DNA of 64,000 bases from Escherichia phage T4_ev151. Positions 3,421 through 58,073 of this stretch are shown in pieces. The stretch lies in the sequence record LR597660. The stretch is one strand, 5' to 3'. The notes beneath the pieces were generated by a model, which did not search any database, was not told where the DNA came from, and saw only the letters and a list, made by a program, of their open reading frames with translations. Each line of letters starts with the position of its first letter. Within the stretch, counting starts at the first letter, position 1. Made by a program: the position numbers and the translations under genes.

Positions 3421-3699
3421 TCAAAATGTAATTTCTAACCAATCACCATCACGCTGATCACTATTGACTTTAAAGCTGAATCCTTCTTTTCTCAGCCAAT
3501 CACCAATTTCTTCAGTAATCAATTTATCACGAGCAATACAATAATAATTAAAATGTGTTTTACCTTGTTCAGCTGCTTTATTAGCAAGTTCCGAAAAATC
3601 TTTAATAAAACACTCTAGTTTAAACTGTTTACTTTTTAATGCTTTTTCACGTAATTGATTAGCAAAAGATTCATTTTCATAAAAATCATACTGTTCCAT
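3421..3699 (-). CDS. hypothetical protein (T4 24.2 position)
   Basis: 92 aa ORF between rnlB and hoc on the same strand as flanking genes. Confidence 0.6.
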   Translation of the reverse strand: MEQYDFYENESFANQLREKALKSKQFKLECFIKDFSELANKAAEQGKTHFNYYCIARDKLITEEIGDWLRKEGFSFKVNSDQRDGDWLEITF

Positions 3700-54198: not shown

Positions 54199-54214
54199 AG
54201 GGGCTTCGGCCCCT
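54199..54214. terminator. stem-loop between genes 37 and 38
   Basis: AGGGGC-TTCG-GCCCCT hairpin immediately after the gene 37 stop and just upstream of the GGAGG SD of gene 38. Confidence 0.45.
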
Positions 54215-54225
54215 TGGAGGTTTAT

Positions 54226-55002
54226 ATGGCAGTAGCAGGACCGTGGATAGGAACTTCTGCATTGGCACAGACTGGAGACCATTGGATGGCAGGAGCAGCC
54301 GCAAGATTAAGAATGGGCGTTCCGTTTTGGATGAGTAATATGATAGGTCGATCTGTTGAAGTAATTCACACGCTTGGAGCAGACCATAACTTCAATGGTC
54401 AATGGTTCCGAGATAGATGTTTTGAGGCAGGTAGTGCACCTATAGTGTTTAATATCACTGGAGATTTAGTATCATATTCTAAAGATGTTCCTTTATTCTT
54501 CATGTATGGAGATACACCGAATGAATATGTTCAGTTGAATATACACGGCGTAACGATGTATGGACGTGGCGGTAATGGCGGTAGCAATAGTCCTGGCTCA
54601 GCTGGAGGTCATTGTATTCAAAACGATATTGGTGGGAGACTAAGAATCAATAATGGCGGAGCTATTGCAGGCGGCGGTGGCGGCGGTGGCGGCGGATATT
54701 ATTCTCCTTTTTCACAAATGAGATTGACCTTTGGTGGTGGTGGCGGTCGTCCTTTTGGTGCGCCAGGCGGATCTATTGATATGCAATCAGGCGCAACTGC
54801 TGGTACTATTTCTGCGCCTGGCGCAGGGTCTGTGAACGGTATCTATAATGGCGGGAATGGTGGTGAAGTTGGCTCCGCAGGAGGTAGATGCAATATTCGC
54901 GGTCAAGGATCTGAATATAATGGCGGCGATGCTGGTTATGCTGTTATAGGGTCTGCTCCAACGTGGATAAATGTTGGAGCAATATATGGTCCAAGAGTAT
55001 AA
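54226..55002 (+). CDS. 38: T2/T6-type tail-fibre adhesin gp38 with glycine-rich motifs
   Basis: Track starts at TTG 54214; ATG at 54226 follows GGAGG; 258 aa with glycine-rich segments ([61 protein letters not shown]) separated by variable segments. Confidence 0.8.
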
Positions 55003-55689: not shown

Positions 55690-55962
55690 TTATTTGTTCG
55701 TATACATCTCTAGATATCGATATACACCCTCAAAACCCTCGTTGAATTCGTCGATGAGGGTTTTCTTATCTTCTTGGGTTAATTCAGAAACAATTTTACG
55801 GAATGAATTCTGATTTAACTTTCTACCTTCATGCGTTACTCCAATCTCATTCAGAAATGCAATAAAATTAGCACGATTCTCAACAATATCTTCTCTGGAA
55901 AATTTAATCAAAATAGACGCAACAGTAATAATTTCACGAACTGTATCAATATTTTTATTCAT
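55690..55962 (-). CDS. asiA: anti-sigma-70 factor AsiA
   Basis: 90 aa MNKNIDTVREIITVASILIKFSREDIVENRANFIAFLNEIGVTHEGRKLNQNSFRKIVSELTQEDKKTLIDEFNEGFEGVYRYLEMYTNK matches recalled T4 AsiA. Confidence 0.95.
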   Translation of the reverse strand: MNKNIDTVREIITVASILIKFSREDIVENRANFIAFLNEIGVTHEGRKLNQNSFRKIVSELTQEDKKTLIDEFNEGFEGVYRYLEMYTNK

Positions 55963-55968
55963 TAACTA

Positions 55969-56127
55969 TACCACTCAATTAGTTGACTTTGTTATAATAT
56001 CATCAGACGCTTGATTTGTAAACTGGTCTGTGGTATTTTCTTCAAAAATTTTTTCTACGAATTCCTTGAACGACTTACGTTCCTGAGCTACATTATGCTC
56101 GATTACTTTTTCAAGATTATGACTCAT
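55969..56127 (-). CDS. possible 52-aa ORF between arn and asiA
   Basis: Hand-found; ATG overlaps the arn stop (ATGA); MSHNLEKVIEHNVAQERKSFKEFVEKIFEENTTDQFTNQASDDIITKSTN. Confidence 0.4.
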
Positions 56128-56402
56128 TCGAAATAATCTTCAATTTCATAATCAAGAACATAAATCATTATAGTTTTTAATACATCATCAATACTTTTTC
56201 CAGGAGCTGGAATTACGTAAAAATATCCTGCTTTTGAGAGGTCTTTATAAGTTCCAACCAAGAAATCATTATTCTCAAGATGCAGTTCTTCAACTAATTC
56301 ATTAACAATTGAGTGGTATAAATTTGGTAGAAACTTATATAGCTTTTCTAGAATATCAATTTTGATTGTGTATTGAACCACAGACTGAGAATCAATAATC
56401 AT
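56124..56402 (-). CDS. arn: anti-restriction nuclease (Arn) candidate
   Basis: 92 aa acidic protein at the T4 arn position and with the T4 Arn length; assignment by position and size. Confidence 0.65.
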   Translation of the reverse strand: MIIDSQSVVQYTIKIDILEKLYKFLPNLYHSIVNELVEELHLENNDFLVGTYKDLSKAGYFYVIPAPGKSIDDVLKTIMIYVLDYEIEDYFE

Positions 56403-56568
56403 AGACCTTCCCCTTATGTTTCTGTTTGCGATTAGATTCTTTAAACGCTTTCTTCTTATCTTTGTGGACAGAAGCTTTATTAAAATTATGTTTTGCGACT
56501 AAATTGTTCATAGTGCTGAATTACCTCTCTCAAACATTTGCATGTGAATGAAAACTTTTTAATATTCA

Positions 56569-57030
56569 TTAGTAAAGGTCCTCAGAGTAAAGTTCTTTTT
56601 CATTACCACCACGTTCAATACGTACTTGTCCAGCGTAAGTTGCAATAATCATTGCTTCTTCACGTGTCCAATAATTACTATATTGGTCAATAAACCCTTG
56701 GTCATCATCACAAACTTGTTGAGTAACTAATTGAGGTTTAACTACATCTAAAACTTCTGCCATATCTTTAGAATAATGACGAGCACCTGGAATAATAAGA
56801 GTTTGTCCATCTTTTAATTTAAAACGGTTGGCTGCACAGACAATTCGTCGTTGATACTTTTGGTTTTCATCCCAATACGCAGTCTGCCAACAGATTTCAG
56901 GAACTTCTTTCAGAATATCTTCTTCTGCGCATTTATAACCATGCGCTTTAAATTTTTCAACAAGACTTTCTGGAGTTTCACGAGATAAAGGAACATTCAG
57001 CATTTTTAAACGATTAATAAATGGGTTCAT
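56569..57030 (-). CDS. hypothetical protein
   Basis: 153 aa; ATG verified; no recognised motifs; region corresponds to the arn.x/motA.1 block in T4 but with different ORF sizes. Confidence 0.6.
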
Positions 57031-57356
57031 TTAAACCATCCTTTAATACGTTGCCACAAAGTTTTCTGCTGAGCTTTGTTAACACCAATTGAACGAATAA
57101 CCGGTTGAGATTCCTGGAATTCTTTATAATCGGCAAGGTAAATTTCGTAAGCTGCATCCGTAAATGAACTTATCGCTGCCATAAAATTATTGCGAATACC
57201 TACTGGAGCATCTTTACTTTCACGAATAATCATGTATTTACCAGTCTTAATCTTTACGATAGTTCCAAGATAAGCTCCATGGTACCAGATGTCCCACCCC
57301 TCTTGAGTGGGTTCTGCACAACGACGAAGTTCATTGACAATTTCTAACTTGTTCAT
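57027..57356 (-). CDS. hypothetical protein
   Basis: 109 aa; ATG verified; ATGA overlap with the downstream ORF. Confidence 0.6.
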
Positions 57357-57366
57357 TATTTATTCC

Positions 57367-58002
57367 TCACAGTTCAGATGCTACAGTGATTACAGCTTCA
57401 ATGTTTTCTGCCGAGCGTTTAATGTCAAGATACACATTACCGTTTTTAGCGATTTTACATGACATTCCGATGTCAGTAAATTTCTGAATATGATGTTCCA
57501 TCATTTTGTATCCAAAAATTCGCATATTTCCATTGTTGTTAATTTCAAAATTACGAATTCCGTGAGTGCGTTTTTCTAAAATAGCGAGATAGTTACTGCG
57601 GTAAGTTTCAACCTTTTTAAGAACAAATCCATTTTCATCTAAAAGTTTTAACATGAGGTCTTTATCTTCTTCCATATCAGAAGTAATCTCACGAGCTTTA
57701 CGAGTTGCTCGTTTTTTCAGTAGTTCCGGAGCATTTTCCTGTGCATATAAAGTTGCTGCATTTGAAATAATATCCTGAGCTTCACCAGTAATGATTAATC
57801 CATCACCAGATTTCTCCACCAGGCCTTTTTTAATCAATACCCCAATATTACTATTAACTACTGCGTTACCTAAATCTGGATGCACCTCACGAACTTCTGC
57901 AGCTGTAATGAAATCTTTCTTAGCAATAGTAATTAAAATCGCAGCAGTTTTTTCATTCAGAACATCGTTAGAAGCTTTGATGATGTAAGTTACTTTAGAC
58001 AT
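57367..58002 (-). CDS. motA: middle-transcription activator MotA
   Basis: 211 aa MSKVTYIIKASNDVLNEKTAAILITIAKKDFITAAEVREVHPDLGNAV... matches recalled T4 MotA. Confidence 0.92.
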   Translation of the reverse strand: MSKVTYIIKASNDVLNEKTAAILITIAKKDFITAAEVREVHPDLGNAVVNSNIGVLIKKGLVEKSGDGLIITGEAQDIISNAATLYAQENAPELLKKRATRKAREITSDMEEDKDLMLKLLDENGFVLKKVETYRSNYLAILEKRTHGIRNFEINNNGNMRIFGYKMMEHHIQKFTDIGMSCKIAKNGNVYLDIKRSAENIEAVITVASEL

Positions 58003-58043: not shown

Positions 58044-58073
58044 ATAGTACCACAGTATGCTTTGGTTGTAAAC
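58044..58073 (-). promoter_or_regulatory. early promoter (GTTTAC, 18 nt, TGGTACTAT) upstream of motA
   Basis: - strand GGTTTACAACCAAAGCATACTGTGGTACTATACAAC. Confidence 0.55.

Follow-up and report, generated by a model that had tools for sequence, protein, structure and literature searches.

The genes between asiA and motA of Escherichia phage T4_ev151 (sequence record LR597660) very probably represent the T-even arn operon of a wild Tequatrovirus, encoding orthologues of T4 Arn.3 and Arn.4, in which a deletion has removed the elements that in T2 place the operon under the influence of the host small RNA ArcZ and the nuclease RNase E. As judged by alignment, this 415-base-pair (bp) deletion is the sole structural difference that separates the interval from those of T4, T2 and about 480 other Tequatroviruses. 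The window is the whole stretch of 64,000 nucleotides (nt) that was analysed, and coordinates are positions in it unless they are assigned to T4, in which case they follow the numbering of our T4 locus (L003, from NC_000866). The window comes from a Tequatrovirus whose closest records are 98% identical in this region and about 96% identical over 24 kb. An initial annotation, made from the letters alone, had held that the layout between asiA and motA departs from that of T4 and encodes two unknown proteins, of 153 and 109 amino acids (aa). The layout does depart from T4, not through these two open reading frames (ORFs) but through the deletion of parts of arn.1 and arn.2.

The 415-bp deletion in the arn operon

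In T4, the annotated gene order is asiA, asiA.1, arn, arn.1 (43 aa), arn.2 (98 aa), arn.3 (152 aa), arn.4 (68 aa) and motA. A three-way alignment of the window, T4 and KMB42 contains one 415-bp gap, with flanks of 96–98% nt identity on each side. The missing bases correspond to T4 2241–2655 and fall between window positions 56,551 and 56,552. In gene order, strand, location between motA and asiA and nt identity (96–98%), the region agrees with the T4/T2 arn operon (arn.4, arn.3, arn.2, arn.1, arn; T4p257–T4p261), from which it differs by the absence of these 415 bp; they comprise codons 7–98 of arn.2, a 70-nt stretch that is annotated as intergenic, and codons 1–22 of arn.1. At the junction, arn.2 codon 6 is joined in frame to arn.1 codon 23. 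Read by translation, the 27-aa in-frame remnant (56,486–56,569, minus strand) consists of Arn.2 residues 1–6 followed by Arn.1 residues 23–43, and retains the ribosome-binding site (RBS) and ATG of arn.2 together with the stop codon of arn.1. Consistent with this structure, residues 20–43 of T4 Arn.1 match the window at 56,560–56,489 in a tblastn search (96%), and a second copy of arn.2 was not found anywhere in the window.

The end-points of the gap point to the way in which it arose. Within T4 2101–2750, AAACTTTTTA is the only 10-mer that occurs twice, with copies at 2241 and 2656 that lie 415 bp apart at both end-points; in the window, a lone copy survives at the junction (56,552–56,561). 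Because the end-points coincide with the two copies, one of which is retained, we interpret the gap as a deletion between short direct repeats, which would have arisen by illegitimate recombination or replication slippage between the two AAACTTTTTA copies. Classical rII deletions in T4 form between short direct repeats. The present case is like them in keeping one copy of a 10-bp direct repeat at the junction, with a parental spacing of 415 bp, and differs from them in being a variant of the arn region in a natural isolate or metagenome rather than a laboratory rII mutant.

Each of the 30–40 top database matches aligns to the region in two pieces with about 415 extra bases, and in a sample spread across the matches every Tequatrovirus record that spans the whole region (H121–H136) carries about 415 extra bp. 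Phage records covering at least 80% of the region number 483, and for the 415-bp segment itself the same threshold is reached by 483 records. Neither IMG/VR nor the JGI metagenome contigs contain the junction sequence. The exact Arn.3 protein of the window was found on two contigs, one from the European Nucleotide Archive (ENA; ERZ28599232 scaffold_787, the name of which carries SAMN18354169) and one from the Logan assembly of run SRR14000777; both are 100% identical to the window and have the same junction. The deletion variant is new among sequenced Tequatroviruses; arn.3 and arn.4 themselves are already known as uncharacterised T4 genes.

Loss of the ArcZ and RNase E sites

The deleted segment takes in a regulatory region described for T2 in a preprint of June 2026 (10.64898/2026.06.19.733364). 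In T2, ArcZ pairs with arn.2 at +285 to +294, and this pairing shields the arn transcript from an RNase E cut at GCAUU, which lies 11 nt before the arn.1 start in the 70-nt intergenic region. The stability of the arn transcript depends on ArcZ and Hfq, removal of the intergenic region makes expression independent of ArcZ, and on an arcZ deletion host the T2 titre shows an approximately two-fold defect that is suppressed by deletion of mcrC (10.64898/2026.06.19.733364).

T4-type relatives of the window carry both sites exactly as reported for T2. T4 arn.2 reads CCAGGGAAAT at +285 to +294, at the 3′ end of the gene, and the 70-nt stretch after arn.2 ends in GGCATT and 11 further nt before the ATG of arn.1. 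Escherichia coli ArcZ (Rfam RF00081, 117.6 bits) holds AUUUCCCUGG, the perfect complement of CCAGGGAAAT. The pairing site CCAGGGAAAT occurs in T4 and KMB42 but nowhere in the window, which also lacks CCAGGGAAA throughout, and the GCAUU motif falls within the deleted T4 segment (2241–2655). The sites for ArcZ pairing and for RNase E both lie inside the deletion, and the window has neither of these two T2-type features. RNAduplex, used to look for other ArcZ sites, proved too permissive to tell T4 from the window, and its result was not used.

Because the deleted segment holds both sites, expression of the operon is predicted to be independent of ArcZ. The arn.4/arn.3/DUF7230/arn transcript would escape cutting at the GCAUU site in this phage, and DUF7230, arn and asiA.1, which lie downstream of the junction, would be expressed with no need for ArcZ or Hfq; the cost of this independence would be the loss of Arn.1 and Arn.2. 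The operon is the same as the one that yields the ArcZ- and RNase E-controlled transcript in T2, and the window resembles construct II of the T2 preprint, in which the intergenic region was removed and expression was ArcZ-independent, with the difference that the window additionally lacks arn.2.

Part of the lost control region may itself be coding. The 70-nt ‘intergenic’ stretch is open in the arn.1 frame, and this frame in T4 2307–2390, deleted from the window, encodes ...SKSDYFNSLNDKDKNLIRHFIVE. The SKSDYFNSLNDKDKNLIRHFIVE stretch matches the N terminus of the 72-aa Arn.1 of phage JK45 (phrog_4452), and T4 and KMB42 differ here at third codon positions only. A TTG start after AAGGTGA would give T4 a 69-aa Arn.1, which is probably the true form of the protein. 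The first codons of this candidate (TTG GCC AGG GAA ATT) and the site of ArcZ pairing overlap, so that a translation start may be what ArcZ acts on.

Arn.3, Arn.4 and the small genes of the interval

The two ORFs that the initial annotation could not place are genes of T4. The 153-aa protein (56,569–57,030, minus strand) is identical to T4 Arn.3 at 148 of 153 residues, and the 109-aa protein (57,027–57,356, minus strand) agrees with the T4 reading frame at 108 of 109, the sole difference being at codon 1 (ATG in the window, ATA in T4). For identical proteins on a public contig, precomputed assignments give PF26092 (T4_Y16D) for the first and PF26821 (Phage_T4_Y16F) for the second, both newer models that lie outside the Pfam copy used for our direct scan; the corresponding PHROG matches are 839 (E = 1.1e-72) and 1594 (E = 2.5e-54). 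The first gene lies downstream of motA between arn.4 and arn.2/arn, its start overlapping the arn.4 stop by 4 nt, and the second follows motA immediately, behind a 5′ GAGG RBS. By sequence and position, the two ORFs are orthologues of T4 Arn.3 and of full-length Arn.4, genes that occur in hundreds of Tequatroviruses. That this phage had instead replaced the small arn.x ORFs of T4 with two different, novel anti-host genes was suggested by the lack of a recognisable motif in either ORF and by their siting between asiA, arn and motA; we give the idea practically no credence, as 97% and 99% protein identity to T4 Arn.3 and Arn.4 in the same position, and the presence of the same genes in hundreds of Tequatroviruses, leave it refuted by the T4 alignment. 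The premise behind it, that T4 has only smaller arn.x ORFs here, was mistaken, since T4 has both arn.3 (152 aa) and arn.4 at this place.

Other parts of the initial annotation hold up. The ORFs that it listed as arn (92 aa), 39 aa, 153 aa and 109 aa are all present on the minus strand, and its small ORF of ‘52 aa’ exists at another size, as the 50-aa asiA.1. Clear orthology to T4 ORFs of assigned function, which would have counted against it, is found by half: the orthology is clear, and no function is assigned. None of the libraries searched returned a named function for Arn.3 or Arn.4, in keeping with its description of the two proteins, and the functions of arn.1 to arn.4 are stated as unknown in the T2 preprint (10.64898/2026.06.19.733364), the only publication that turned up in literature searches for the Arn.3 and Arn.4 identifiers, asiA.1, DUF7230 and Y16D.

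The 68-aa Arn.4 annotated in T4 contrasts with the 109-aa product of the window, where the ATG is intact. T4 has ATA at 3455–3457, the place at which the window (57,354–57,356) and most relatives have the arn.4 ATG, and the remaining 108 codons specify identical residues with 13 third-position nt differences. On this comparison, the T4 product looks like the outcome of a recent start-codon loss, or of an ATA start, and not like the natural length of the gene. Similar codon patterns extend across the interval, with differences at codon positions 1, 2 and 3 of 0, 0 and 13 for arn.4 against T4, 0, 0 and 4 for the DUF7230 gene, and 2, 2 and 12 for arn.3 against KMB42. Because the differences fall overwhelmingly on third positions, we take the ORFs of the interval to be real genes under purifying selection; every one of them has a plausible RBS or overlaps the stop codon of the preceding gene.

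The confident AlphaFold2 model of Arn.3 (pLDDT 89.8, pTM 0.76) has three N-terminal helices followed by a core of β-hairpin, helix, strand and helix, and the conserved unit of the protein is its C-terminal part of about 95 residues. A profile search with Arn.3 retrieved 3,373 clusters at 50% identity, many of them stand-alone proteins of 90–110 aa and some with long N-terminal extensions that contain no Pfam domains. Among 147 remote members, H85 and R123 are invariant, and at least 90% share V64, A66, A67, R84, Q111, G112, F113, D115, A126, A130, Q135, L147, S149, E150, L152 and Y153. An exact [LI][YHW] end after L(F/Y)SEx is found in 141 of the 147, and extra sequence is only ever N-terminal, never C-terminal. 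The BFVD structures related to Arn.3 belong to uncharacterised proteins encoded by T4-like, Vi1-like and jumbo phages and by Agrobacterium phage 7-7-1. In a scan of 185,579 species genomes the domain occurs on just three contigs of metagenome-assembled genomes, which leaves no cellular homologue as a guide; the family is large and almost confined to phages.

Large polyvalent proteins of phages contain domains known as LPD domains, and the Arn.3 model gives weak Foldseek matches to three such proteins of 767–1354 aa (E = 3e-3 to 7e-2 over about 95 residues at about 25% identity). No Pfam LPD model matches Arn.3 or any of the 147 remote relatives, and relatives of Arn.3 differ from large polyvalent proteins in that the domain is stand-alone or C-terminal. 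Searches by sequence, profile and fold found no relative of Arn.3 in the Protein Data Bank (PDB), and sequence and profile comparisons of Arn.3 and Arn.4 with PDB chains gave only chance-level matches to TNF ligands (E about 0.2). A Pfam scan of the 147 remote relatives and 10 multidomain members found no partner domain, and no neighbour of the Arn.3 gene recurs in about 45 loci outside T4-like phages.

Individual loci offer a range of neighbours. MazG-, NADAR- and metallophosphatase-like genes, recognised by eye, recur within one related phage group only. On an uncultured phage contig (L008, 4555–5486), the gene for the Arn.3 domain overlaps the stop of an SspB-like (PF04386) gene, with NadR-like and PnuC-like genes nearby, and on two other contigs (L006 and L009) it lies near dUTPase/DCD genes; none of the SspB-, NadR-, PnuC-like or dUTPase/DCD neighbours recurs across lineages. 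Readings of the Arn.3 motifs, by eye, as those of an ADP-ribosyltransferase, a Nudix protein, a 2H-phosphoesterase or a PD-(D/E)XK nuclease were rejected, because the motifs suit none of them and fold comparison lends them no support.

The pattern seen in Arn.3 would suit a small enzyme, or a module that binds a ligand, whose target does not depend on the host, better than it would suit a rapidly evolving inhibitor of a single host protein. We propose, with low confidence, that the C-terminal Y16D domain of Arn.3 serves as a small module for catalysis or ligand binding, directed against a target common to many hosts. A more far-reaching proposal would make Y16D a very large, almost phage-only family whose members are small enzymes or bind ligands and have a fold new to the PDB, in which the strictly C-terminal position of the domain and its invariant L(F/Y)SExLY-COOH end are functional, as an active-site carboxylate or a host-docking peptide; together with the coupled Arn.4 and DUF7230 it would form a host-takeover or counter-defence module between motA and asiA, freed from ArcZ here, along with Arn, by the deletion. 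Taken as a whole, this proposal is speculative and we think it unlikely to hold in full.

The AlphaFold2 model of Arn.4, of fair quality (pLDDT 82.9), shows one helix, an antiparallel meander of five strands and two further helices; the C-terminal part contains a low-confidence linker at about residues 84–99 and then a short basic amphipathic helix. The closest folds to Arn.4 are YkuJ (PDB 2ffg), 1ylx and MmoD, at 3–11% identity and with borderline scores, and because YkuJ and 1ylx have no known function, none can be transferred to Arn.4. The family comprises 55 clusters at 90% identity, in which all named members are T4-like phages. The arn.4 stop overlaps the arn.3 start in Tequatroviruses, and the two genes are also adjacent in the distant phage EcS1 (gp164 and gp165). 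Tentatively, Arn.4 could be a Tevenvirinae-specific accessory protein that is made with Arn.3 by translational coupling.

Many GenBank and UniRef entries (for example, H25, H59 and H62) label Arn.1 to Arn.4 ‘anti-restriction nuclease’, a label that appears to have spread from the gene names alone. Pfam, NCBIfam and PADLOC hold no family of nucleases or anti-restriction proteins that Arn.3 or Arn.4 matches, and neither protein has fold similarity to solved anti-defence proteins (for example, Acb1/Acb2, Tad1/Tad2, Apyc1, Ocr and Arn) or a match to any PADLOC model. Sub-threshold matches in Pfam, NCBIfam and PADLOC were disregarded, namely Prok-E2_B (E = 0.05), Nif11 leader (E = 0.054), PD-T4-9_B (E = 0.0025, over an N-terminal helix) and REase_II (E = 0.0033). 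The anti-defence role that the initial annotation suggested for Arn.3 and Arn.4 is plausible.

Downstream of the junction, the DUF7230 gene (56,392–56,511, minus strand) encodes a basic protein of 39 aa (pI 10.2) that matches PF23876 at 44.9 bits (cut-off 27) and PHROG 1359 (E = 5e-23). The protein is identical in the window, T4 and KMB42, and the 4 nt differences from T4 are all synonymous and at third positions. Its gene is unannotated in the T4 reference (2081–2200) and in JK45, and has an 11-nt overlap with the start of arn and a 26-nt overlap with the stop of arn.1. The first 25 residues also match the longer PHROG families phrog_5724, 4586 and 31895, and no paralogue was found in the window. 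Next comes arn (56,124–56,402, minus strand), the 92-aa product of which is 88/92 identical to T4 Arn and matches Pfam DM_Arn (PF22134) with E = 2.9e-52 and 175.3 bits (cut-off 26); by family match, it is a putative DNA-mimic inhibitor of McrBC. The 50-aa asiA.1 product (55,975–56,127, minus strand) is identical to T4 AsiA.1 at 48 of 50 residues and matches PHROG 3762 (E = 3e-37). The interval is bounded downstream by asiA (55,690–55,962, minus strand; 90 aa; Pfam AsiA, E = 1e-42), and the upstream neighbour of the operon is motA (57,367–58,002, minus strand; 211 aa; Pfam MotA_activ, E = 4.7e-61, and MotCF, E = 2.6e-67). These Pfam matches make the identities of arn, asiA and motA certain.

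Several signals on the minus strand were seen in and around the operon. A σ70-like promoter match precedes motA at 58,072–58,044 (TTTACA, 17 nt, TACTAT, with TG), and directly 5′ of it lies a strong terminator-like hairpin (58,124–58,103) of 9 pairs, 6 of them G–C, followed by a T-run. The order of hairpin and promoter-like site suggests insulation of the motA-to-arn unit against transcription of gene 52/motA.1. A further promoter-like site lies within asiA.1 (56,022–55,994). Outside the interval, the gene 5′ of the holin gene t (54,214–55,002) encodes a glycine-rich product of about 262 aa with GGGGGG runs, and database matches to its last bases (55,000–55,002), the part covered by the search, are labelled tail-fibre adhesin. 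We take this product to be a T2-type gp38, implying T2-like receptor recognition, rather than the T4-type gp38 chaperone.

Alternative readings and what the deletion means

The gene content of related loci bears on what kind of module the conserved genes form. We compared 79 IMG/VR loci, about 40 of which have motA and asiA. All of these approximately 40 loci have arn.4 and arn.3 between the two genes, with arn.2 and arn.1 variable; DUF7230 is present in about 40 of 41 motA/asiA-bearing loci examined, and arn is detectable only in close Tequatroviruses. From this presence pattern, the conserved core of the region is Arn.4, Arn.3 and DUF7230, and not Arn. Outside the T4/T2 clade the region is mosaic. 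Klebsiella phage MY02 (L012, 1391–2658), for instance, has the order arn.4, a 59-aa ORF, a long arn.1, arn.3, DUF7230 and arn, with no arn.2; because this order differs, the asiA–motA interval seems to be a hot-spot of small-gene shuffling across the Tevenvirinae. The same presence pattern, together with the restriction of the 55 Arn.4 clusters to T4-like phages among named members, would suit a reading in which Arn.4, Arn.3 and DUF7230 belong to the MotA/AsiA module for takeover of host transcription and not to anti-restriction or anti-defence. We consider this a live alternative to anti-defence but an unlikely one, because it rests on synteny, because the Arn.3 domain is common in phages that have no MotA and AsiA (Vi1-like phages, jumbo phages and Agrobacterium phage 7-7-1) and because no DNA-binding or RNA-polymerase-binding fold was detected.

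Our interpretation of the window as a T-even arn operon that has lost its ArcZ and RNase E elements by deletion has several points against it. The deletion is seen in what appears to be one biological sample only, as the ENA and Logan contigs, and probably the window too, appear to share reads. The T2-type single-unit order (arn.4, arn.3 ... arn) is conserved in gene order, stop/start overlaps and RBSs, as far as the sequence goes, but a regular-expression search found no MotA-box consensus 5′ of arn.4 or in the operon. The predicted ArcZ independence draws on plasmid constructs and T2 data in an unreviewed preprint. The exact ArcZ site is found only in T4/T2-type Tequatroviruses and is absent from JK45-type Tequatroviruses and other genera; as it is limited to the T4/T2 clade, dependence on ArcZ would be clade-specific, and with arn.2 missing in several lineages, loss of the module may have been close to neutral and not an adaptation. 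Neither Arn.3 nor Arn.4 has a PDB or PADLOC relative, or a conserved neighbour outside the Tevenvirinae.

The first of these points raises the question of whether the 415-bp gap stems from faulty assembly, or from a deletion variant that forms a minority of the sample and is not the dominant genome. Such an origin would agree with a gap found in apparently one sample (ERZ28599232 scaffold_787/SAMN18354169 and SRR14000777) and absent from about 480 genomes and two contig collections. It is nevertheless quite improbable, because two different assembly pipelines produced the identical junction, because a 10-bp repeat is below the usual k-mer size of assemblers, making collapse unlikely, and because the junction has the classic shape of a real deletion between direct repeats. 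A stronger competitor accepts the deletion as real and regards it as a neutral loss of two dispensable accessory genes, in which the loss of ArcZ/RNase E control is incidental and has no meaning for fitness. Several natural Tevenvirinae lineages (L033/34, L051–53, L055 and L057/58) lack arn.2, arn.3 directly adjoins DUF7230 in Klebsiella phage MY02, and the ArcZ site is confined to the T4/T2 clade. However, about 480 of 480 genomes of that clade retain the segment, which argues for selection on it, and T2 suffers an approximately two-fold titre defect without ArcZ according to the preprint (10.64898/2026.06.19.733364). We therefore regard a neutral loss as a serious possibility, although on balance not the one we would expect.

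As genes, the two proteins that drew attention to the interval bring nothing new, being already filed in Pfam as uncharacterised families. The comparison with T4 corrects the T4 annotation at three places, with a full-length arn.4 of 109 aa, an arn.1 that is probably 69 aa with a TTG start, and the missing 39-aa gene. It also draws attention to the Arn.3 domain, whose family is large, restricted to phages and of no known fold, as worth a structure and a phenotype screen. The deletion itself is a natural counterpart of the engineered T2 construct, with the ArcZ and RNase E sites gone and arn kept, and could readily serve to test how far dependence on ArcZ counts in a real phage.

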